Below are positions 3,672-58,515 of a DNA stretch of 64,000 nt, piece by piece. The notes below the pieces were generated by a model. That model did not search any database. It saw nothing but the letters and a program-made list of their open reading frames with translations, and was not told the DNA's origin. A program made the translations under genes and the position numbers. The DNA is from Escherichia coli (GTDB lineage: Bacteria; Pseudomonadota; Gammaproteobacteria; Enterobacterales; Enterobacteriaceae): the NCBI RefSeq assembly GCF_003334335.1, contig NZ_QOWQ01000021.1; one strand, 5' to 3'. Every line of letters begins with the position of its first letter. Position 1 is the first letter of the stretch.

Positions 3672-5405
3672 GTGAATATTCAGGCTCTTCTCTCAGAAAA
3701 AGTCCGTCAGGCCATGATTGCGGCAGGCGCGCCTGCGGATTGCGAACCGCAGGTTCGTCAGTCAGCAAAAGTTCAGTTCGGCGACTATCAGGCTAACGGC
3801 ATGATGGCAGTTGCTAAAAAACTGGGTATGGCACCGCGACAATTAGCAGAGCAGGTGCTGACTCATCTGGATCTTAACGGTATCGCCAGCAAAGTTGAGA
3901 TCGCCGGTCCAGGCTTTATCAACATTTTCCTTGATCCGGCATTCCTGGCTGAACATGTTCAGCAGGCGCTGGCGTCCGATCGTCTCGGTGTTTCTACGCC
4001 AGAAAAACAGACCATTGTGGTTGACTACTCTGCGCCAAACGTGGCGAAAGAGATGCATGTCGGTCACCTGCGCTCTACCATTATTGGTGACGCAGCAGTG
4101 CGTACTCTGGAGTTCCTCGGTCACAAAGTGATTCGCGCAAACCACGTCGGCGACTGGGGCACTCAGTTCGGTATGCTGATTGCATGGCTGGAAAAGCAGC
4201 AGCAGGAAAACGCCGGTGAAATGGAGCTGGCTGACCTTGAAGGTTTCTACCGCGATGCGAAAAAGCATTACGACGAAGATGAAGAGTTTGCCGAGCGTGC
4301 ACGTAACTACGTGGTAAAACTGCAAAGCGGTGACGAATATTTCCGCGAGATGTGGCGCAAACTGGTCGACATCACCATGACGCAGAACCAGATCACCTAC
4401 GATCGTCTCAACGTGACGCTGACCCGTGATGACGTGATGGGCGAAAGCCTCTACAACCCAATGCTGCCAGGAATTGTGGCGGATCTCAAAGCCAAAGGTC
4501 TGGCAGTAGAAAGCGAAGGGGCGACCGTCGTATTCCTTGATGAGTTTAAAAACAAGGAAGGCGAACCGATGGGCGTGATCATTCAGAAGAAAGATGGCGG
4601 CTATCTCTACACCACCACTGATATCGCCTGTGCGAAATATCGTTATGAAACACTGCATGCCGATCGCGTGCTGTATTACATCGACTCCCGTCAGCATCAA
4701 CACCTGATGCAGGCATGGGCGATCGTCCGTAAAGCAGGCTATGTACCGGAATCCGTACCGCTGGAACACCACATGTTCGGCATGATGCTGGGTAAAGACG
4801 GCAAACCGTTCAAAACCCGCGCGGGTGGTACAGTGAAACTGGCCGATCTGCTGGATGAAGCCCTGGAACGTGCACGCCGTCTGGTGGCAGAAAAGAACCC
4901 GGATATGCCAGCTGACGAGCTGGAAAAACTGGCTAACGCGGTTGGTATTGGTGCGGTGAAATATGCGGATCTCTCCAAAAACCGCACCACGGACTACATC
5001 TTCGACTGGGACAACATGCTGGCGTTTGAGGGTAATACCGCGCCATACATGCAGTATGCTTACACGCGTGTATTGTCCGTGTTCCGTAAGGCAGAAATTA
5101 ACGAAGAGCAACTGGCTGCAGCTCCGGTAATCATCCGTGAAGATCGTGAAGCGCAACTGGCAGCTCGCCTGCTGCAGTTTGAAGAAACCCTCACCGTGGT
5201 TGCCCGTGAAGGCACGCCGCATGTGATGTGTGCTTACCTGTACGATCTGGCTGGTCTGTTCTCTGGCTTCTACGAGCACTGCCCGATCCTCAGCGCAGAA
5301 AACGAAGAAGTGCGTAACAGCCGTCTGAAACTGGCACAACTGACAGCGAAGACGCTAAAGCTGGGTCTGGATACGCTGGGTATTGAGACAGTAGAGCGTA
5401 TGTAA
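3672..5405 (+). CDS. argS: arginine--tRNA ligase
   Basis: 577 aa ORF with class I aminoacyl-tRNA synthetase HIGH-type motif (HVGHLRS) and ArgRS-like sequence throughout; GTG start. Confidence 0.97.
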
Positions 5406-32515: not shown

Positions 32516-33727
32516 GTGAAAAACAGAACCCTGGGAAGTGTTTTTATCGTGGCGGGAACCACAATTGGCGCAGGCATGCTGGCAATGCCGCTGGCTGCGG
32601 CAGGTGTTGGTTTTAGCGTCACGTTAATCTTGTTGATTGGGCTTTGGGCGTTGATGTGCTACACGGCGCTATTACTGCTGGAGGTGTACCAGCATGTTCC
32701 GGCAGATACCGGTCTTGGCACGCTGGCAAAACGCTATCTGGGACGCTACGGTCAGTGGCTGACGGGCTTCAGTATGATGTTCTTAATGTATGCTCTGACT
32801 GCGGCATACATCAGCGGTGCCGGTGAATTGTTGGCCTCCAGCATCAGCGACTGGACAGGTATTTCAATGTCGGCAACCGCTGGCGTGCTGTTGTTCACTT
32901 TTGTTGCCGGTGGCGTGGTTTGTGTCGGGACATCGCTGGTCGATTTGTTTAACCGTTTTCTGTTCAGCGCCAAAATTATTTTTCTGGTGGTGATGCTGGT
33001 ATTGCTGCTACCGCATATTCACAAAGTGAATCTTTTAACCCTGCCGTTGCAACAGGGGCTGGCTCTGTCAGCAATCCCGGTGATTTTTACCTCATTTGGT
33101 TTTCACGGTAGCGTGCCGAGTATTGTCAGCTATATGGATGGCAACGTTCGTAAGCTACGCTGGGTGTTTATAACCGGTAGTGCGATCCCCCTGGTGGCAT
33201 ATATTTTCTGGCAGGTGGCAACGCTTGGCAGCATTGATTCAACAACCTTTATGGGATTGCTGGCTAATCATGCTGGATTAAACGGGCTGTTACAGGCGTT
33301 ACGCGAAATGGTGGCCTCTCCGCATGTTGAGCTGGCAGTGCATTTATTTGCTGATTTAGCCCTCGCCACGTCATTTCTCGGCGTTGCGTTAGGCTTATTT
33401 GATTATCTGGCTGATTTATTTCAGCGTTCAAATACCGTTGGTGGACGGTTGCAAACTGGTGCAATTACCTTTCTGCCGCCGTTGGCGTTTGCACTGTTTT
33501 ATCCACGAGGATTTGTGATGGCGCTGGGTTACGCCGGTGTGGCGCTGGCGGTACTGGCATTGATTATCCCTTCGCTGTTGACCTGGCAAAGCAGAAAGCA
33601 CAATCCTCAGGCGGGTTACCGGGTGAAAGGTGGTCGTCCGGCGCTGGTGGTGGTGTTTCTCTGTGGTATTGCTGTGATTGGCGTGCAATTTTTGATTGCG
33701 GCAGGGTTGTTACCAGAAGTGGGGTGA
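32516..33727 (+). CDS. tyrP: tyrosine-specific transporter TyrP
   Basis: 403 aa multi-TM aromatic amino acid permease; GTG start. Confidence 0.95.
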
Positions 33728-43258: not shown

Positions 43259-43675
43259 ATGAAGAGCGTTAAGGGACTTTCAGATATTCAGGACTTTTTT
43301 AACTGGATGTGGGCGGAGGATCCCCTGCTGGCTTCCCGCCTGAACGACTGGCACGACTGTTACCGTCGCGCCTGTAAACAGGCTGCCCGCAGCGTCACCA
43401 CATACGGGGATTTCTCCTTCACCGTTGACGATCGTTACCGCGTGGACGTGAAAGGTGATGGTGATGGCTTTGGTTTATTTCACATCAACGGCATCGACAG
43501 CACCACCATCAGCTGGTCGTCATCAGAGATGGCGCTTGTGCTGGAGATGACAAACCACAGCGTGGCCGTGAAAGGTATATACACCGCAGAAGACTTTATC
43601 GGTGAATACCAGCGCCTTCTCATGCTGTACCGCGCGGCGTTTCAGGCGGCAACTGCCGGGGAGTGCGACGCATGA
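43259..43675 (+). CDS. hypothetical protein, 138 aa (upstream of A; B/orf-equivalent position)
   Basis: Track ORF; stop overlaps the start of gene A (ATGA). Confidence 0.55.
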   Translation: MKSVKGLSDIQDFFNWMWAEDPLLASRLNDWHDCYRRACKQAARSVTTYGDFSFTVDDRYRVDVKGDGDGFGLFHINGIDSTTISWSSSEMALVLEMTNHSVAVKGIYTAEDFIGEYQRLLMLYRAAFQAATAGECDA

Positions 43676-46185
43676 GCGACCATAACGCACAACTGGCGTA
43701 CCCGTGGAACGCCCCGCTGCAAGTTATCGATCCTGAAACGTTCGGCAGAGCGCAACCAACCGCATTACGCCAGGTCATTCAGAGCTACATCAACGAAGAC
43801 ATTCGCATTGATGCCAGACTAGATGAAGAAACCGTCGCCTTCCTGACAAACACAGACGAAGGCAAGCGAATTAATTTGCATCTTCACCGCGACGAAGAGC
43901 GTCGGATCAGACTGGAAAAAGTGGTGCGGCGCAAACGCGAATATCCGCCCACGCTGGTATCGAAAGCCATGGCAGAACTTCGCGCCCTGCCCTCGTTTCT
44001 TGGTAACGCGCTCATTCGTGATCTGGCGCGTTTAAACCGCAAACAGCAAAGCGCCCGCCATGAAGGCGTGAAAAACAACAATACACACGTGGCTGATAAC
44101 TTTGTTCGCCGTGGACTGCGCACACGCCTGAAACGCATCGAACAGGTGAATGAACGCTTCGCCACGACAGCATTCAAAGCCACCGCAGCGCGTCATCGCC
44201 TTGATGAATTACTCATGCTGCCACAACTCAACCGTGATCAAATTCAGCGCCTTGCCACACTAACGGCGGCGGCATTTTCCACCGAACTGGAACGCATATG
44301 TGATGAAGTTACTGAGCGGACAGGAAAAGGTGACGATAACCTGTTCACCTGGTTGCTGACTTACCAGCAGCTGGCGCGCATGGCGTTAAAACTGGGCGTG
44401 ACCCCACCATACTGGCCGTCACTCGAGATCAGACGTGACCGCCGCACGGCACCAGACCCTGAACTGGTACCGGGTGCGGTAATGCGTATCACCTGCGCCA
44501 CCTGGTGGAACAACCAGCTGCGCCACCTCGCAGATCTCTGGCGGGAGGAATTACTGCGTGCCGCCGGAAGAGTATCGCGCAAGGCATCCCCCTACATCAG
44601 TCATGAGTCACTCCAGGAATTCCGGGAGAAACGCCAGCGCACCCGTGATTTTCTCAAAAGCTGGGACATTGAAAACGAAGACGGTGAACGCCTGAGTCTG
44701 GAGGACGTGTACTGGTCAGGGCTGGGGAATCCGCGCAACCGCCGCAACGAGATGATGGCCTGCGTCAGAGGGATGGAACAGGTCGCCGAATCGCGTGGTG
44801 ACTCCGCGTTCTTCGTGACAGTAACCTGCCCTTCCCGCTTTCACAGCGTGAACGAGGACGGCAGCCTGAACCCGAAATACAACGGTGCCACCGTGCGCGA
44901 TGCCAGTGATTATCTGGTTTACGACGTCTTTGCAGCTGCAAGAAAAAAACTCAACAAAGAAGGCCTGAGCTGGTACGGGGTGCGCACCGTTGAGCCACAC
45001 CATGACGGCACACCACACTGGCACATGCTAGTATTCACTTCCCCGGACAATGAAGAACGCATCATTGAAATCATGCGTGACGCAGCAATCAAATCAGATC
45101 GCGCAGAACTGGGGAATGATATTTCTCCGCGCTTCAAGTGCGAAAAAATCGACCCGGCAAAAGGCACACCGGCAAGCTACATCGCAACCTATATCGGCAA
45201 GAACCTGGACACCAGCACCTTCCATAACAATGACCCGAAAACCGGCAAACCTTACGCCGATAAAGAATCGGGAAAAACCATGGCGGAAACCGTGGAAAAC
45301 GCCATTGCCTGGGCGAGTCTCCATCGCATCCGTCAGTTCCAGTTCTTCGGAATCCCGCCCCGCCAGGTATGGCGTGAACTCCGCCGCCTTGCCGGACAGA
45401 TGGAGCGCAACCCCGCATCACCGAAGCGCCTGGACCATGACGACATTGACGCCATTCTGGCCGCCGCTGACGTGGGGTGTTTTGCCACCTACATCAACCG
45501 TCAGGGCGGCGTGCTCATTCCACGCAACCTGTACCTGATCCGCACCGCATACGAAACCGCAGATGAGGCCAATGATTACGGGGAATTTCCTCAACGTATC
45601 TGGGGAATATGCGCCCCGTCGCTCGGCGAGCGCTACACCATCTGTACCCATCCGGACGAATGGAAACTGGTCAGAAAAGAAGCGAAAACCGACAACAGCA
45701 CGGACGAGGATTTTGACGTTGGGGGCGGCTTCGCCGCACCTTGGACTCGTGGCAATAACTGTCCCCATGATGAAAAAACAGACACCGGAGAGGGTAAAAC
45801 CCCACCACCGGAAACCAGGAAAGAACAAAAACTGGTCGTCCCGGGAGGTGATTTGGGTGAGTGGTTAAGGTCACTGACCCCCACAGAGCGAAAACAACTC
45901 ACCAGGCAGCTGAAAGATGCGCCATCTGACACAAAAACCGTGAAAACCGGCGGCCCCACCACGCCCGATGACGTCATACATGTGCGTACAGCATTGCCGC
46001 TGACTGACGTCACCACCACCGTAATCAAGTCGGCACTGAGCGCGACGGGCGAGGAGCTACACAGTGGCGCAGCACTTTCCGTACACAGAGGTGCACGCGT
46101 TCGCCTGCCTGACGGGCGGATTGTGCACTGGGATGAGAAATCACGAAGCCTGGTGGCAGCAGATCAACCGGAGGTGAACCCATGA
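43672..46185 (+). CDS. A: rolling-circle replication initiator endonuclease (P2 gpA family)
   Basis: Track ORF 43663..46185; HUH-type motif HWHMLVF and twin-tyrosine motif ASYIATYIGKN as in P2 A. Confidence 0.88.
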   Translation: MSDHNAQLAYPWNAPLQVIDPETFGRAQPTALRQVIQSYINEDIRIDARLDEETVAFLTNTDEGKRINLHLHRDEERRIRLEKVVRRKREYPPTLVSKAMAELRALPSFLGNALIRDLARLNRKQQSARHEGVKNNNTHVADNFVRRGLRTRLKRIEQVNERFATTAFKATAARHRLDELLMLPQLNRDQIQRLATLTAAAFSTELERICDEVTERTGKGDDNLFTWLLTYQQLARMALKLGVTPPYWPSLEIRRDRRTAPDPELVPGAVMRITCATWWNNQLRHLADLWREELLRAAGRVSRKASPYISHESLQEFREKRQRTRDFLKSWDIENEDGERLSLEDVYWSGLGNPRNRRNEMMACVRGMEQVAESRGDSAFFVTVTCPSRFHSVNEDGSLNPKYNGATVRDASDYLVYDVFAAARKKLNKEGLSWYGVRTVEPHHDGTPHWHMLVFTSPDNEERIIEIMRDAAIKSDRAELGNDISPRFKCEKIDPAKGTPASYIATYIGKNLDTSTFHNNDPKTGKPYADKESGKTMAETVENAIAWASLHRIRQFQFFGIPPRQVWRELRRLAGQMERNPASPKRLDHDDIDAILAAADVGCFATYINRQGGVLIPRNLYLIRTAYETADEANDYGEFPQRIWGICAPSLGERYTICTHPDEWKLVRKEAKTDNSTDEDFDVGGGFAAPWTRGNNCPHDEKTDTGEGKTPPPETRKEQKLVVPGGDLGEWLRSLTPTERKQLTRQLKDAPSDTKTVKTGGPTTPDDVIHVRTALPLTDVTTTVIKSALSATGEELHSGAALSVHRGARVRLPDGRIVHWDEKSRSLVAADQPEVNP

Positions 46186-47508: not shown

Positions 47509-47552
47509 CAGCAGCGAGGGTAACACAGGATTTCTTTTTTCAGTCAAACCGA
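47509..47552 (+). terminator. rho-independent terminator ending the rightward A operon
   Basis: Perfect inverted repeat gttaccctc agcagc gagggtaac followed by a T-rich run (tttcttttttc). Confidence 0.75.
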
Positions 47553-48268
47553 AATCGGCCGCTTGTCGCGTATGCATAGGTGACCACCGCACCCAGCGCA
47601 TTCACACGCTTCTTCACATAAATCACATTACCATCCTGATAGTCACCGTATGGGTAGCAAATAAATATTGTTTTTTGCAAATCAGGATCATCAACAAATG
47701 CCCCTGAACAACTTTTTGAGCTACCGCGACTGTACTCATAGGGAGCGGAATAGAATGAATCTTCACCCGGAAGAAAATATATCAGCGTAACCAGGAGGGT
47801 AAACAGAATCATCCAGGTAAGAAGGCACATACCCGAAAAAAACTTAAGATACGATGTAACCCCGGTAAATTTAGACCGATCAACCAGGTTCTTTTTCAAC
47901 AGGCACAGTGAGGCAAAAACCGAAAGCACCACAGACACTGAAACAAGGCAGTTTGTCGTGAACGAATAAAGGTAGGTAATTCTGTAAACATCGTTTCGCC
48001 ACCAAATAAAAAGAAAAATCCCCCCCAAAACAGAAAGCGTGACAAAAGTTAAATAAGGATATGAGTAATTTTTCACAGTTCTCACCCGGCAGTCTCCCAC
48101 TGATTCAGACAGATGAATATCATCACCACCTGCCACAAAAAATCGCAAGATCAAAACTGCACAAAAGCGCACGAAATTGCACAATTTTTCTAATGTACTT
48201 TTTCCCCATTCCGCCCGGTAACGGCGCTGGCTGAGGCCGGTTTGCACGGTGCACGAAAAACGAGGCAA
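47540..48268 (-). CDS. hypothetical multi-pass membrane protein in the A-Q cargo hotspot (start uncertain; likely GTG near 48076, about 178 aa)
   Basis: Track ORF with three hydrophobic helices and about 75 aa C-terminal soluble domain; body looks markedly AT-rich by eye; candidate GTG start preceded by ggtgag SD. Confidence 0.6.
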   Translation of the reverse strand: MPRFSCTVQTGLSQRRYRAEWGKSTLEKLCNFVRFCAVLILRFFVAGGDDIHLSESVGDCRVRTVKNYSYPYLTFVTLSVLGGIFLFIWWRNDVYRITYLYSFTTNCLVSVSVVLSVFASLCLLKKNLVDRSKFTGVTSYLKFFSGMCLLTWMILFTLLVTLIYFLPGEDSFYSAPYEYSRGSSKSCSGAFVDDPDLQKTIFICYPYGDYQDGNVIYVKKRVNALGAVVTYAYATSGRFRFD

Positions 48269-48269
48269 T

Positions 48270-48310
48270 TGCAGCGCGCAGGCGACGAGGGAAGGGCGCC
48301 CGAATTGAGG
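48270..48310. other. candidate cos (cohesive end) region
   Basis: GC-rich tract gcgcaggcgacgagggaagggcgcc between hotspot and portal, where P2-type cos lies; about 13 of 19 positions match my recollection of the P2 cohesive end GGCGAGGCGGGGAAAGCAC. Confidence 0.3.
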
Positions 48311-48630
48311 GGTGGAAGGCAGGTTGCTTTATTTGGGGTCGTATTGCGCGTGATACGCACGCAGTGAAGCCGGTTCTGAAAAAACCACACCGAAACAGAG
48401 TCAGAAAAACAGGCCGCCAGAATGCGTCTGGTTGAGTTTTACGGGGTCGGGATTAAATGCGGAAACATCACACCGCAGGCATGACGCGAAAAAGAGAAAA
48501 ACCACAGCAAAACATAATGTTAAATGTTATTGATGAGTTGAGAAGCGAAAGGTGTATTGCGTTGACAGAGCTGGAGAGTCGGGGCATAAATTTTTTATGC
48601 CCCGGCGAAGCAGCCGACAAGCGAAGCGCG

Positions 48631-49674
48631 TCAGCTGGCGCCATCCTGAAGCAGCGAATAGGGATTAAAGCGCATCACTTCAACCCCAAGCCATTCATTG
48701 ACATGCTTCATCGCTTCCATGACCGGTTGCAACTCGTTGATGAAAAATACCCTCGCCGCCTTCTCAACGTCACCGAACGCCGCGTTCCCGTCAGGCATTG
48801 CCCCCATCAGCTGAGGCGGTACACGGTGAGCCGCAAGGATATCGTCGCGGGCACTCCCCTTGATGTTAAGGAATTCGTCCTTCGCGGTGATTTGCTGGAA
48901 CGGCAGTATTTGCACACCATCCTTGCCGCCACCTGGCGCGTGCAGAAGGATATTGCGGAACGCCCCCTTGCCACGGGATTCCGTGAGTGTTTTCTTGATG
49001 GCTTCCACGCTTTCAGCGTTTGCCTGGGCGGCACCAACATAGACAATGCACCCGGCATGTGAACCGTTGTCATAGTAGAGCTTGCGGAACGTATCCGCTG
49101 AGTTCGACAGACTCACCGACAGCAACCCACCGATATACTCCGGCATCCCGTAGATTTCCTGGTTGATATCGGGGTTCAGAACGTGGCACACAGCCCCCTT
49201 ACGGAAAGCAAATTCAGAACCATCATCATTGAGGTACCAGTACGTATCGAGATCACTGCCCCGCCGCGTGTATTTCGCCAGCGCAGGACGAAGCGCAATG
49301 GGTTCACCGAACTTGTTGCGGCGGACTTCAAGATAGGCATTACCGAACACGAACCAGTCCAGCGCAAACGCGGAAAACGCCTGGCGGGACAGTAGCGGAT
49401 GAGGAACAAAGCAGCCGTTCAGGGCATTACGCTTAAAATACAGGGCCGACTGGTGCCATGATGCACGACGCGAGGCGCGAGCAATGGCATTCCAGTCCAT
49501 GGGGGTGTCATAGTAGCGGCCATTATCGGCGCACGACATGTTATCAAGCAGATCAAGACGGCTTGCTTCATAAGGACCGTCAAACGTGAAAGCACTGAGT
49601 GACGGCGCTGATTTCAGTGCATCAGCCAGTGAGCCCGTGCCGCGCTTTCCGGTGTATTTTTTACGTTTACTCAT
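48631..49674 (-). CDS. Q: portal protein (P2 gpQ family)
   Basis: 347 aa; position next to terminase large subunit, leftward as in P2. Confidence 0.85.
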   Translation of the reverse strand: MSKRKKYTGKRGTGSLADALKSAPSLSAFTFDGPYEASRLDLLDNMSCADNGRYYDTPMDWNAIARASRRASWHQSALYFKRNALNGCFVPHPLLSRQAFSAFALDWFVFGNAYLEVRRNKFGEPIALRPALAKYTRRGSDLDTYWYLNDDGSEFAFRKGAVCHVLNPDINQEIYGMPEYIGGLLSVSLSNSADTFRKLYYDNGSHAGCIVYVGAAQANAESVEAIKKTLTESRGKGAFRNILLHAPGGGKDGVQILPFQQITAKDEFLNIKGSARDDILAAHRVPPQLMGAMPDGNAAFGDVEKAARVFFINELQPVMEAMKHVNEWLGVEVMRFNPYSLLQDGAS

Positions 49675-49679
49675 TGTGT

Positions 49680-51458
49680 TCAGAACTCCATTGCAAAGCC
49701 ACGATTATCCTCACGCTCTGCGCCGATTGGCTCATTGATAACAGCAAGCATGGTTGCCCAGGCGAGATCACCATGACTGACACCGCGTGAGCGGTCAGTG
49801 TCATAGGTGATATAGCCGCCGGGCGTCTGTATTTTTCGCACCGATGCAAAGGCCTGTACCAGGTCGCGCTCGCTGCGGTCATACTCCCAGCGTCCGGCAC
49901 GGACCACCTGAAGCATCTTCATGACCAGCGCCCGCTTTGAAGCGATATTAAAGTTATACGGAACAGCCAGGGGGAAGAATTTTTTCACTATCTGATAAAC
50001 CCCTTCCCCGTTCCCGCCGGTGACATCAATCCCGATATGCTTCACATTGTATTTTTGGGTGTACTCCTCAATCAGGGCGGCCTGCTGTTCAAACTCCATG
50101 CCCTGAACCCTGACGGTTTCCACCGTACGAAAACGCCCACCGGCAACAAGGGGTGGCACGCACACCGACAGCGCCCCGCAGTCCCCCTTCCCGCTGCTGC
50201 CGTTGGCGTCATACCCGAGCCAGACTTCCCTCACCCCCATAGGGCGGACAGCAAAAGGCTTCCAGTCCGGCCATTCGTCATAGCCATCAACACCGCACCC
50301 GACGAGCGTATTCAGACTGAAGGCTGCCTCACCATCACGGACAAATTCGCACATGTACAGATTGCGAAATTCACTTTCTGTATTTTCGCCGCGAATATCA
50401 TCAATACTGGTGAACTGCCATCCGTTAGCGACAGCATCCTCAATGGTGACAATCTGCCGCCACGTTTTGTCGGGAAAGAGCACGCCCCTCTTCAGGTGAG
50501 CATGTGAAACATCAAACTCACTGCGTTTTGAGCGTGGCTGTTCGCTGTTCCAGCGGTCCCCCGTCCAGAACTGATACGCCTCATGCATTTCCCCCGACGG
50601 CGTCGAGAAGTAAGTGCGCGTAAGCCCTTCCAGGGTCGCCATTGCCCCGGCAACCTTCCTGAGGTTCACAAAGTTACTGACCCAGAAAAATTCGTCGAAT
50701 TTAAGATGACCGGTATAGGACTGCGCGGTGGCAGCTGACGTACCGAGGAAGTGCAGCTCCGCGCCGTTGGACAGCACGATCTTGTCGCCCCCTTTCAGCT
50801 CAACATCCACTTCCAGCGCCGCCTGCTGAATAAAATGCTTGAACTGATACGCCTGACGACGGGAGGCGGACAAAAATATCTGGTTGCGCTGACACCCGGC
50901 GGAGACGTCATCACGCAGTGCATCAAGGAGCGCCTCGCGCGCAAAATACCAGGTCGCACCAATCTGACGCGACTTCAGGATCATACGGTTGCGGTGGTGA
51001 CGGTTTTCGTACCATTCACGTTGATGCCACGCCAGCGTCGGGAGGATTTTTTCACGAAGCGCGACAATCTGTTCTTCGGTGAAGTGATTTTTCAGTCTGC
51101 GTTTACGGGGCTTTTTACCGGAAACGGCCTGTTCTCCCTGACCGTCATTCAGTTTTTTCAGCTGGCGCGTGAGAAGGTCAATTTCCTTAAAATCGCTGCC
51201 GCTTTTCTCTGTTTTTGTGGTGAGCTGGATCAGGCGCGCATCAATGGACTGGGTGACCCGCTGGATCGGAGGTGTGGCATCCCACTCATCGCGTTTTTTC
51301 CATGAGTAAATCGTGTTCTGGCTGATCCCCATCAGTTGCGAGATTTCCGCAGGTGTGTACCCTTGCCAGTAAAGTTGTCTTGCCCTTATGCGGACAAATG
51401 CATCCTGAATCATTGACGCCCCCTTGCTGTTTGATCTCAAGAGTAAACGCCCGCGCAT
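49680..51458 (-). CDS. P: terminase large (ATPase) subunit (P2 gpP family); start may be internal
   Basis: 592 aa track ORF; N-terminal HTH-like segment and downstream ATPase/nuclease regions; size matches P2 gpP. Confidence 0.85.
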   Translation of the reverse strand: MRGRLLLRSNSKGASMIQDAFVRIRARQLYWQGYTPAEISQLMGISQNTIYSWKKRDEWDATPPIQRVTQSIDARLIQLTTKTEKSGSDFKEIDLLTRQLKKLNDGQGEQAVSGKKPRKRRLKNHFTEEQIVALREKILPTLAWHQREWYENRHHRNRMILKSRQIGATWYFAREALLDALRDDVSAGCQRNQIFLSASRRQAYQFKHFIQQAALEVDVELKGGDKIVLSNGAELHFLGTSAATAQSYTGHLKFDEFFWVSNFVNLRKVAGAMATLEGLTRTYFSTPSGEMHEAYQFWTGDRWNSEQPRSKRSEFDVSHAHLKRGVLFPDKTWRQIVTIEDAVANGWQFTSIDDIRGENTESEFRNLYMCEFVRDGEAAFSLNTLVGCGVDGYDEWPDWKPFAVRPMGVREVWLGYDANGSSGKGDCGALSVCVPPLVAGGRFRTVETVRVQGMEFEQQAALIEEYTQKYNVKHIGIDVTGGNGEGVYQIVKKFFPLAVPYNFNIASKRALVMKMLQVVRAGRWEYDRSERDLVQAFASVRKIQTPGGYITYDTDRSRGVSHGDLAWATMLAVINEPIGAEREDNRGFAMEF

Positions 51459-53566: not shown

Positions 53567-54376
53567 ATGCTGACACCGGCACAACGATACCTTCAGCGCG
53601 TGATGGCGCATCATCGGGCTGATCCATTCAGTCGCGAAGAGCAGCGAACACGAACGGCACATGAACAGGTTCTTCACCAGTTACGCCTCGCCCAGTTGCA
53701 GCTGAAGGGCGTGCAGTCGAACATCGCGAAAGCGGAGCTGAAGAAGCACCTGATACCGAATTTTGAAGGCTGGATAGACGGCACGCTGGCAGGCGACAGC
53801 GGACGCCAGGACGAAGTCATTACCACCATGATGGTGTGGGCAATTGACTGCCGGGATTATCCGCTGGCACTGCGTATCGGTGAGTACGTCATTCGTCACC
53901 GGCTGGCACTGCCGGACAACTTCGGGCGCGATTCGGCGACCGTGCTCACCGAAGAAATTGCCGAAGTTGTGCTGACAGAAGCCGCCACCAACAGCGAAAC
54001 CGACTTATCCGGCTATATCCGTATGCTGGACGAGCTGGATGCACTGGTTCACGACCAGGACATGCCGGATCAGGTTCGTGCAAAACTACATAAGGCGCGG
54101 GCATTTTCACGGCGCGCATCAGGCAGTACGGAAGACATGACTGTGTCACTTGGTCTGCTGCGTGAAGCCATGCGCATCAATCCGGCAGCGGGCGTGAAGC
54201 GTGAAATCGCCACGCTGGCCAGAAAGGTATCAAAGGTTCAGCCGGAACCGGAAAAACCGGCAGAAGAGAAAAGTAAATCGAAAGCAACATCAGGGCGCAA
54301 AAAGCCGACTACAAAAGCGACGGCCAGAAAAGCCACGAAAAAAACCGCCGCAAAACCGGCGCGCAAGGCGACCTGA
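53567..54376 (+). CDS. M: terminase small/endonuclease subunit (P2 gpM family)
   Basis: 269 aa with lysine-rich C-terminus; position after N. Confidence 0.75.
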   Translation: MLTPAQRYLQRVMAHHRADPFSREEQRTRTAHEQVLHQLRLAQLQLKGVQSNIAKAELKKHLIPNFEGWIDGTLAGDSGRQDEVITTMMVWAIDCRDYPLALRIGEYVIRHRLALPDNFGRDSATVLTEEIAEVVLTEAATNSETDLSGYIRMLDELDALVHDQDMPDQVRAKLHKARAFSRRASGSTEDMTVSLGLLREAMRINPAAGVKREIATLARKVSKVQPEPEKPAEEKSKSKATSGRKKPTTKATARKATKKTAAKPARKAT

Positions 54377-56544: not shown

Positions 56545-58515
56545 ATGAGCAAAAAACACTTTGAACTGATTACTGCCACCAACCGCGCAGAATTCGCTGA
56601 AAAAGTTAACAAGCGATTACAGGAAGGCTGGGAACTTCTCGGTAATGCCGGTATTGCATCAGAGCCGGGAGTCCCCTGGTATCTCATGCAGGCTATGGTT
56701 TCAGGCAGTGATGACCAGGGAGGCACCATTATCACCCCGACATCCGACAGCGAACCGGAGTGGTATTACGTTGTGGTGAGCGCTGGTCAGTCCAACTCTA
56801 TGGCATACGGTGAGGGGTTACCTCTCCCGGACAGTTACGATAAACCCGATTCGCGCATTCGCCAGCTGGCACGCCGCAGCACCGTAACCCCGAGCGGAAA
56901 AGCCTGTGCCTATAACGACATCATTCTGGCGGATCACTGCCTGCATGACGTGCAGGATATGAGCCAGTACAACCACCCGAAAGCCGACCTGAACAAAGGT
57001 CAGTATGGCTGTGTGAGTCAGGGATTGCACATTGCGAAGCGCCTGCTGCCATTTATCCCGGCAAATGCGGGGATCCTTCTGGTCCCATGCAGCCGTGGCG
57101 GTTCCGGCTTTACAACCGGTGATGCGGGGCAATTCAGCGAGATCGGCGGCGCAACTGAAAAATCCTGCCGCTGGGGAACGAACACGCCGCTGTACAAGGA
57201 TTTAATCAGCCGCACAAAAGCAGCGCTGGCGAAAAATCCGAAAAACGTCCTGCTGGCCGTCTGCTGGACACAGGGCGAGGCAGATCTTGAGAAAGAACAA
57301 AACGCCGCACAGCATAAAGATCTTTTCACAGCCATGGTGAAGCAGTTCCGGGCTGACCTGGCCGATGTTGCGAAGCAGTGCAACCAGGGCAACCCTGAAA
57401 GCGTGCCGTGGATTTGTGGAGATACCACCTACCACTGGAAAAAAACCTACGAAGCACAGTACGCAACCGTGTATGGCGGATACAAAAACAGCACTGAGAA
57501 GAATATTGTTTTTGTGCCTTTTGTTACGGATGAGTACGGGAAAAACACCCCAACAAACGAGCCGACAGAAGATCCGGATATTGCGGAAGCGGGTTATTAC
57601 GGTGCCGCATCCCGCAGTAGCGGAAACTGGGTAAGCCATCTGCGTGGAACGCACTTCAGCTCATGGGCCCGCCGGGGCATTATTGCCGATCGCATGGCGT
57701 CAGCAATCCTGCTTAACGTCGGCCGCACGCTGCCATTTATTGCGGGTACAGAGCCGGAACGCGTGGCAAAACCATCACAGGATGCACCGGGCGGCATCAG
57801 TAAGCCATCTTCACCGGAAGCAGAACAACCGGCAGTCAGACCGGGGCCGGTCACGCTCATGAGTCTGCTGGCATCATCTCCTGAACTGGAAAGCCAGGGC
57901 TGGACGCTGAGCGAAGGCAAAAACGGGGCCAACACACCAAAACAACTGAAAGACACGCTGATCGGTGATGAGGAAGCAACAGGGAAAAAAGCCCTGAAAC
58001 TGACCAAACAGGAAGGCAATACCTGGTATCTGGAGCATAAGGCCGGTAATGGTGCTGACCTTCTGAAAAATGGCGGGACTGTAAGTTGCCGATTCAAAAT
58101 CGAGGGTGAGCTGAAAAAAGACCAGTACGCAATGGCGATGTACTGGAAAACATCAGCATTACCGCAGGATGTGAAATTACTGGGGGCAGATCCAAATAAT
58201 TTATTGCTCTCATTCTTTCTTCAGACAGACAGCGCAAACCTGAATCTGATGTATCACAAAACGCCAAACGAACAACTGGGAACCTTTGGTCAGTTCAATA
58301 ACAACTGGCACACCATAGCGTTTCGTTTTGCGGGAAACAACAGCACCCAGGTAACACCGGTTCTGGATGGCGTGGACGGAAAACCGTTCATGCTTTCCAC
58401 ATCAAAAGCCGATGTTACCAACGACACGTTACGCGTGACCGATATCACGTATCGGCCGACCTATACCGTACTGATTGACAGCCTGAGCGTTGTCGTAAAT
58501 CAGCCACCGGCATAA
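56545..58515 (+). CDS. NanS-p-like prophage sialate O-acetylesterase (DUF1737 + SGNH hydrolase + C-terminal domain)
   Basis: 656 aa; N-terminal MSKKHFELITATNRAEFAEKVNKRLQEGWELLG (DUF1737-like), SGNH block VVVSAGQSNSMAYGEG, overall size as in prophage NanS-p esterases. Confidence 0.75.
   Translation: MSKKHFELITATNRAEFAEKVNKRLQEGWELLGNAGIASEPGVPWYLMQAMVSGSDDQGGTIITPTSDSEPEWYYVVVSAGQSNSMAYGEGLPLPDSYDKPDSRIRQLARRSTVTPSGKACAYNDIILADHCLHDVQDMSQYNHPKADLNKGQYGCVSQGLHIAKRLLPFIPANAGILLVPCSRGGSGFTTGDAGQFSEIGGATEKSCRWGTNTPLYKDLISRTKAALAKNPKNVLLAVCWTQGEADLEKEQNAAQHKDLFTAMVKQFRADLADVAKQCNQGNPESVPWICGDTTYHWKKTYEAQYATVYGGYKNSTEKNIVFVPFVTDEYGKNTPTNEPTEDPDIAEAGYYGAASRSSGNWVSHLRGTHFSSWARRGIIADRMASAILLNVGRTLPFIAGTEPERVAKPSQDAPGGISKPSSPEAEQPAVRPGPVTLMSLLASSPELESQGWTLSEGKNGANTPKQLKDTLIGDEEATGKKALKLTKQEGNTWYLEHKAGNGADLLKNGGTVSCRFKIEGELKKDQYAMAMYWKTSALPQDVKLLGADPNNLLLSFFLQTDSANLNLMYHKTPNEQLGTFGQFNNNWHTIAFRFAGNNSTQVTPVLDGVDGKPFMLSTSKADVTNDTLRVTDITYRPTYTVLIDSLSVVVNQPPA

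Follow-up and report, generated by a model that had tools for sequence, protein, structure and literature searches.

The cohesive-end (cos) sites of the P2 family were taken as the closest described systems. In the P2 record (NC_001895), the 19-nt sequence GGCGAGGCGGGGAAAGCAC stands at both ends, as cosL at 1-19, with Q at 187-1221 (− strand), and as cosR at 33575-33593, after old; the references for this cos site are Padmanabhan et al. (1974) and Ziermann and Calendar (1990; plasmid transduction assay of packaging in cis), as cited in PMC3931495 and PMC9122126. The arrangement given by Rousset et al. (2022; PMC9122126) is the same, with cos between old/tin and the 3′ end of Q, and in that account the cos region is all that P2 and P4 have in common. 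The cohesive 19-mer of phage 186 (NC_001317) is GGCGTGGCGGGGAAAGCAT, and that of P4 (NC_001609) is the P2 sequence. The stretch analyzed here, referred to as the window, is 64,000 nucleotides of the Escherichia coli contig NZ_QOWQ01000021.1 (assembly GCF_003334335.1), in which an earlier note had proposed a candidate cos site between a cargo gene and the portal gene. Window positions 48157 to ~48317 very probably form the cos packaging site of a complete P2-family prophage, in which a cos at this place is an expected, ordinary component.

A profile was built exclusively from the circularized P2, 186 and P4 junctions (160 nt from the right end and 60 nt from the left end) and searched with nhmmer against both strands of the whole window (128 kb) with all filters off. 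One significant match was returned, at 48163-48307 on the + strand (16.6 bits, E = 1.4e-4; runner-up E = 1.9). As a control, 400 copies of the window were shuffled in 2-kb blocks with dinucleotides preserved, and none reached 16.6 bits (best 11.7 bits). In the profile alignment, the first G of the P2 19-mer falls on 48281, with the P2 19-mer in register with GGCGACGAGGG, and the orientation is that of P2, the portal gene being on the side of the left cohesive end. Alignment with the P2 and 186 cos regions, which the earlier note had named as the check on its call, thus gave a significant and unique match in the correct orientation, and the call of a cos is supported, with the evidence sitting in the ~125 bp to the left of the 19-mer. 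The note itself had pointed to a GC-rich tract partially resembling the P2 cohesive end. The 20-mer ggcgacgagggaagggcgcc is present at 48281-48300 (+ strand), and the likeness is real (13 of 19 bases), but it is not above chance by itself: a Hamming scan with the P2 19-mer over both window strands gave 17 sites in total at 13/19 and 2 at 14/19, so the likeness is not evidence on its own. As Hamming scans with the P2 and 186 19-mers were both at chance level, 19-mer likeness alone was dropped as evidence. The feature also exceeds the tract, the conserved module extending from ~48157 to ~48317.

The region was compared by BLAST with 5,426 complete E. coli genomes, and the matches fell into two classes. 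The window-type module was found in 29 genomes at 90-100% identity. The P88-type module was found in ~500 genomes with the window region as query, at 70-76% identity and with homology limited to window positions 48157-48293, while a near-identity search with the P88-type version itself retrieved ~970 of the 5,426 genomes. Its carriers are P88-like phages (Xuanwuvirus; P88, NC_026014), the UTI89 prophage, vB_EcoM-569R5 and others, and its core reads GCGCGCA/GGTGACGGGGGAACAGCCC/GCGTTTCAGGGGG. Enterobacter phage phiT5282H, of a different genus, has the same repeats and a 19-mer identical to that of the P88-type. No record or paper annotating the P88/Xuanwuvirus cos type was found. A gapped pattern from the conserved left flank (TGCACRAAAAA, 9-17 nt, GCGCAGGCG) was used to pull further loci from IMG/VR and yielded a bridge type, ...TTGCACAAAAAAGAGGGTGTGAGGCGCGCA/GGCGAGGCGGGGGAGCAAG/CGCGCGCTTTGGGG (L153, L154 and L156-L161), that mixes the window-type GCGCGCA 5′ flank, a 19-mer matching P2 at 15/19 and the CGCGCGC 3′ flank of P2/186/P4. 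The bridge-type contigs are P2-like, with a portal gene 71% identical to the window's starting ~253 nt to the right, and their matches to the P2-only profile have E values of 1e-5 to 2e-7. All four cos types (P2/186/P4, bridge, window and P88) and hundreds of prophages retain the multi-element layout. In an AT-rich contig (L155), the sequence reads ...TATGCGCA/GGCGCAGAGGGAAGCGCGA, 15/19 to the window 19-mer. When species-representative genomes were scanned for the exact 19-mer, one match was returned, in Novosphingobium, and it is unrelated; exact copies of GGCGACGAGGGAAGGGCGC in unrelated settings are L025 (IMG/VR) and L032 (Novosphingobium endophyticum), and because of these the 19-mer alone is not diagnostic.

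The P88-type module was also found in a satellite-like island of E. coli ETEC4069 (L010; NZ_CP122679.1 1578593-1588729, reverse complement), with cos at ~5001-5170, beside intS. The island carries genes for an 889-aa primase, an integrase and an ogr/Delta-like zinc-finger protein, two unknown open reading frames (ORFs; 77 and 236 aa), a P2-family major capsid protein homologue (423 aa, with an N-terminal extension of ~118 aa) and then MazEF; no portal, terminase or tail genes were found in the 10 kb read of the island. Homology between the island and the phages is limited to a stretch that begins at the first TGCAC repeat and ends ~17 nt after the 19-mer. A second copy of the island is present in IMG/VR (L145), and at least 7 other genomes of pig enterotoxigenic E. 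coli also carry it. Among the IMG/VR loci with the exact P88 19-mer, a portal gene lies within 3 kb to the right in 111 of 120. Sharing of the P88-type module between helper and satellite, as with the cos of P2 and P4, is the behavior expected of a cos. No literature on a capsid-encoding P4-like satellite was found, and a P4-style satellite encoding a capsid protein may merit a separate look.

From left to right, the module and the block beside it contain the following features.

48158..48187, + strand: three direct repeats at 10-bp phase, TGCACAAAAG / CGCACGAAAT / TGCACAATTT, the counterpart of TGCAT x3 in P2/186/P4 at the same relative position
48211..48240, + strand: GC-rich spacer with short dyads (CGCC..GGCG; CTGGC-TGAG-GCCGG), from the alignment
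48243..48260, + strand: TGCAC doublet and A-tract, TGCACGGTGCACGAAAAA, the counterpart of GTGCAACTGCATTAAAAC in P4/186, with high posterior probability in the P2/186/P4 profile alignment
48265..48272, + strand: 8-bp palindrome GCAATTGC, just upstream of the predicted cut, from the alignment
48274..48280, + strand: GCGCGCA half-site, directly 5′ of the predicted top-strand nick, invariant in window-, P88-, satellite- and bridge-type sequences
48281..48299, + strand: predicted 19-nt 5′-protruding cohesive end GGCGACGAGGGAAGGGCGC, G-rich, beginning GGCG, in register with the P2 19-mer
48300..48317, + strand: right flank CCGAATTGAGGGGTGGAA (from 48300: CCGAATTGAGGGGTGG), with CG at +2/+3 and a G-run at ~+9, both also in relatives
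48318..48450, no strand assigned: non-coding block right of cos, conserved within the phage lineage (homology with all window-type relatives from 48153/48157 to ~48450)

The TGCAC repeats are spaced 10 nt start to start and are nearly invariant in the window-type, the P88-type, the satellite and phiT5282H. GCAC[AG]A motifs, four within 110 bp, are at their densest in the window here, and the repeat array is a putative binding site of terminase (small subunit). At 48158-48182, a scan of the minus strand called two terminator-like sites, which are simply the TGCAC repeats and were discarded. The spacer changes sequence by lineage with a small GC palindrome kept, GGATCC-GTCAA-GGATCC in the P88-type and CGCCC-GGA-GGGCG in the satellite, and its counterparts are CGCCAG-AG-CTGGCG in 186 and CCGCGCC-ATTCCC-GGCGCGG in P4. 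GTGCAC(A/G)AAAAA is invariant in all relatives, and 26 nt separate the end of the last TGCAC from the 19-mer (24 nt in P4). In LZSFT34, UViG21, UViG22 and UViG27, GCAATTGC is replaced by GCGATCGC, a double change that preserves the palindrome; the corresponding place in P2 and P4 is taken by the inverted repeat CCGCCC..GGGCGG. Among the 11 distinct window-type sequences, which come from the 29 genomes of E. coli and the 8 IMG/VR contigs with a module of this type, 10 have an unaltered 19-mer. In strain Bongo (L015; NZ_CM153263.1), the core reads GGTGGCGTGGGACAGGGCGC, with three substitutions and a 1-nt insertion clustered in the predicted overhang and the flanks nearly unchanged, and the identity pattern of JNEC-KY174 is the same. 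The right-flank classes have NCG....GGGG in common, and at +9 the sequence in P2 and 186 is GACGGTGG / GAGGTGG. An Rfam search of the cos region and the 48318-48450 block gave zero matches, and single-strand DNA folding of the region overall was not unusual (z = 0.71).

The P2 bottom-strand nick, which is known experimentally, reads CAGCGCGCA^GTGC (derived from the P2 record), and the window top strand reads CAGCGCGCA^GGCG. In the bridge type (GCGCGCA/GGCGAGGCGGGGGAGCAAG/CGCGCGC), exactly 19 nt lie between the flanks, and the alignment to P2/186/P4 is gap-free. From this spacing and the P2 nick context, the top-strand nick is predicted at 48280^48281, after GCGCGCA, and the bottom-strand nick at ~48299^48300 (±1), the latter less certain because the right-hand context is poorly conserved and Bongo has one extra base. 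Terminase (gpM and gpP, encoded 1.4-6 kb to the right) would recognize the TGCAC-repeat/A-tract array on the replication/cargo side after replication and introduce staggered nicks, on the top strand after GCGCGCA and on the bottom strand ~19 nt further on. The virion DNA would thereby gain 5′-protruding, G-rich cohesive ends, with GGCGACGAGGGAAGGGCGC on the left (portal-gene) end, be threaded through the portal into the procapsid and, after injection, re-anneal at its ends. Which elements bind which terminase subunit, the exact nicks and the overhang length are all things we infer. The start of the P88_4B11 record was considered as a cos end and rejected, since the record begins ~80 nt upstream, at an arbitrary point.

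It is unlikely that the module is a cos with its nicks shifted or its overhang of another length, for example the 20-mer GGCGACGAGGGAAGGGCGCC with symmetric ends (GGCG...CGCC). With a 20-nt overhang, both strands would begin ^GGCG, as read from the sequence; in addition, the context of the right-hand nick differs from that in P2, the Bongo variant has its extra base inside the tract, and overhang lengths vary among P2-like phages of other hosts. The placement of both nicks 19 nt apart is favored by the bridge type, with its exact 19-nt spacing and gap-free alignment, and by the comparison of P88 with phiT5282H, in which homology stops right after the nineteenth base.

The window region belongs to the E. 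coli chromosome and has a counterpart of 99.9-100% identity in strains G1/2, G6/7 and G8. The G1/2 copy of the prophage (NZ_CP060083.1) is identical and sits between dmsA and serS, with a P2-type gene set complete from integrase to ogr and zero pseudogene flags, and the prophage in the window looks intact. Its genes run from the replication endonuclease (43663-46185) through the cargo, the site (48157-48317), the portal gene (48631-49674, −) and the terminase large subunit gene (49680-51413, −) to the scaffold, capsid and small-terminase genes, which follow on the plus strand. The site therefore has the location that the earlier note had given it, between a small minus-strand cargo ORF (47540..48076, or 48247 with the RefSeq start) and the portal gene (48631..49674, −), and the comparison made there with P2, whose cos has old/tin on one side and the 3′ end of Q on the other, holds, the order being the same inside a complete P2-like prophage. 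As in P2 and 186, Q and P are transcribed in the direction of the site, which is flanked by the replication/accessory end on one side and by the 3′ end of the portal gene on the other. The genes concerned are as follows.

47540..48076, − strand: cargo ORF left of cos, encoding a small protein with three predicted membrane helices (ORF and hydropathy analysis); not part of cos
48631..49674, − strand: portal gene, P2 gpQ homologue (45% identity to P2 gpQ, 70% to the P88 portal); RefSeq calls the identical prophage gene portal protein
49680..51413, − strand: P2 gpP homologue, the large subunit of terminase and the enzyme that would be expected to act here (46% identity to P2 gpP, 73% to the P88 large subunit); annotated in G1/2
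53567..54376, + strand: P2 gpM homologue, the small subunit of terminase, expected to recognize cos (35% identity to P2 gpM, 57% to P88 gpM); annotated gpM

Linked P2-type terminase (gpP, gpM) and portal (gpQ) genes are thus present, as a P2-family (Peduoviridae) cos site requires. The packaging proteins of the window phage have 57-73% identity with their P88 counterparts and 33-46% with their P2 counterparts (BLASTP; P2 comparison over full length), and judged by these identities the window phage is a sister lineage of the P88/Xuanwuvirus group. A distance of 331 nt separates the predicted overhang from the 3′ end of the portal gene on its right, and no convincing small ORFs were found between cos and the portal gene. 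After the prophage lysis genes, where P2 has none, a gene for a 656-aa DUF6645 protein is present at 56545-58515 (+ strand), possibly a further cargo locus.

The cargo ORF bears on a second alternative, by which the TGCAC-repeat region would be mainly a promoter/operator for the cargo gene or the late operon and the true packaging site would lie elsewhere. The P2 old/tin mRNA starts ~150 nt left of cos, beside the TGCAT repeats, and the window cargo ORF is transcribed away from the region, so that its promoter must fall within or beside 48080-48200. Yet the module is conserved beside unrelated cargo genes of either orientation and is present in a satellite that lacks such cargo, a promoter scan gave zero sigma-70-like sites in 48080-48300, and the profile search found no other cos-like site in the window. 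A promoter overlapping cos is, moreover, compatible with a packaging role for the module, and the alternative is very improbable. Chance resemblance of a GC-rich intergenic tract with no packaging role is scarcely credible: although the 19-mer alone matches P2 no better than other window sites and has chance exact copies in the unrelated contigs L025 and L032, the profile match is unique and was reached in no shuffle, and the multi-element layout recurs across the cos types.

Several points weigh against the assignment of 48157 to ~48317 as a cos. The similarity of the 19-mer to P2, taken alone, is at chance level, and the right-hand nick context is poorly conserved. With the 1-nt insertion of strain Bongo in the predicted overhang, it is uncertain whether the overhang is 19 or 20 nt long. 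The predicted cut coincides with neither end of any phage record in the collection, and among IMG/VR contigs, most of which are prophage predictions, no convincing ends at that position were found; the placement of the cut is predicted here from sequence. On canonical P88-type sequences the P2/186/P4 profile was below significance, and the family link of the P88-type therefore rests on the window-type and bridge-type intermediates. An extended profile that included bridge-type sequences gave E = 6e-16 but is partly circular, as the bridge loci were retrieved with a pattern from the same cos family, and it was not used as independent evidence. Finally, no satellite with the window-type 19-mer was found: a right-half query gave 29 genomes and 35 places, and the one of six second copies that was inspected proved to be another prophage. 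Every inspected copy of the window-type 19-mer lies in a P2-like prophage.

Comparison with relatives places the end of the variable cargo region at 48153-48157, which is also the module's left edge. Left of this boundary the cargo differs, and the block 48157-48450 shows conservation in this phage lineage. The GC-rich tract had been taken in the earlier note for the right edge of the cargo hotspot, which is not so, as the edge lies ~125 nt further left, where the module begins. The cargo stretch is swapped for other genes in relatives, and PADLOC gave zero matches for the cargo ORF. RefSeq starts the cargo gene at GTG 48247, from where it would overlap the repeats and doublet of cos. The GTG at 48076, preceded by GGTGAG and giving a product of ~178 aa, is the more likely start, because the sequence right of 48153 is conserved beside unrelated cargo.

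A second small variable spot lies at 48451-48555, between the cos block and the portal terminator, and in several relatives (L012, L014 and L016) a 167-aa hypothetical ORF is present there. At the 3′ end of the portal gene, 48568-48635 is an element of 68 nt that contains the hairpin GGGGCATAAATTTTTTATGCCCC. Its identity to P88-type phages is 97-98%, against only ~73-76% for the flanking genes, and it may serve as terminator and recombination anchor. In phage 569R5 (L003), the cos-to-portal interval holds an extra ORF, of 174 aa, which lies to the right of this element and separates it from the portal gene.

Natural hybrids were found at 3001-3174 of L017 (S1-CAM-02-A, NZ_CP145707.1) and in L023 (IMGVR_UViG_2579778812_000023), each combining a left half of the P88-type with a 19-mer and right half of the window-type. 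The crossover falls in a common 9-nt sequence, GCGCGCAGG, straddling the predicted top-strand nick, and the portal and terminase genes of L017 are window-type (99% identity). Positions 1-183 of L017 form a half cos, 99.5% identical to window 48084-48266, in which all five TGCAC repeats are present and the cut site is absent; it breaks into AT-rich DNA, where three additional hypothetical genes precede the hybrid cos, which looks functional. This three-gene cargo was found in 9 genomes, always together with the hybrid cos; a P88-type donor for it was not found, and co-transfer of the cargo with the left cos half could not be shown. That the cos cut site itself is the joint at which these phages exchange ends is a tentative suggestion, and a doubtful one. 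A turnover of cargo driven by cohesive ends was only speculated upon by Rousset et al. (2022; PMC9122126); if the suggestion is true, the hybrids and the half cos would be a possible footprint of it, and the left repeat array would be interchangeable between cos types, with the 19-mer and right flank traveling with the terminase and portal genes.

What is new here is modest: the sequence of this cos variant, an apparently unannotated P88-type cos, and the invariant sub-elements obtained by aligning four types. Across P2/186/P4, bridge, window and P88, which can now be aligned, the 10-bp-phased TGCAC repeats, the A-tract and GCGCGCA^GG are invariant, and these pieces map what P2-family terminases probably read. 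The site sets the natural zero point of the prophage genome and marks the right-hand edge of the anti-phage cargo hotspot that adjoins cos in P2-like phages. As a predicted packaging signal, it could be cloned for transducing plasmids and for tests of helper/satellite compatibility.

Among known systems, lambda cos is a functional analogy only. It combines a nicking site, cosN, with partial dyad symmetry, a one-sided binding array for the small subunit, cosB, and 5′ cohesive ends, but its overhang is 12 nt long and neither its sequence nor its small subunit is related, and membership is not claimed. The window site resembles P2 in its orientation and in having the replication/cargo region on one side and the 3′ end of the portal gene on the other, in a G-rich 19-mer beginning GGCGA, in upstream TGCA-type repeats with an A-tract, in a short inverted repeat 5′ of the cut, in the GCGCGCA^G nick context and in the linked gpQ, gpP and gpM homologues. 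It differs from P2 in that the cohesive end matches at only 13/19, the repeats are TGCAC rather than TGCAT, GCGCGCA stands 5′ of the top-strand nick rather than at the bottom-strand nick, and the portal stop is 331 nt away rather than 168 nt; the P2 ends were determined experimentally, whereas those of the window are predictions from its sequence. With 186 and P4, the window has in common five TGCA-type motifs (three and a doublet, separated by a GC-rich hairpin), an A-tract that precedes the cut by 24-26 nt and a 19-mer whose first bases are GGCG, although the sequences have diverged so far that the relationship is detected by profile only, not by pairwise BLAST, and the TGCGCGC/CGCGCGC flank that follows the 19-mer in 186 and P4 is absent. 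The P88-type 19-mer, GGTGACGGGGGAACAGCCC, matches that of the window at 14/19, its right flank is unrelated beyond ~17 nt and its terminase and portal proteins are 57-73% identical; with the same spacing, the same GCGCGCA flank and 71-76% identity over window 48157-48293, the P88-type/phiT5282H module is nevertheless the closest relative of the window module.

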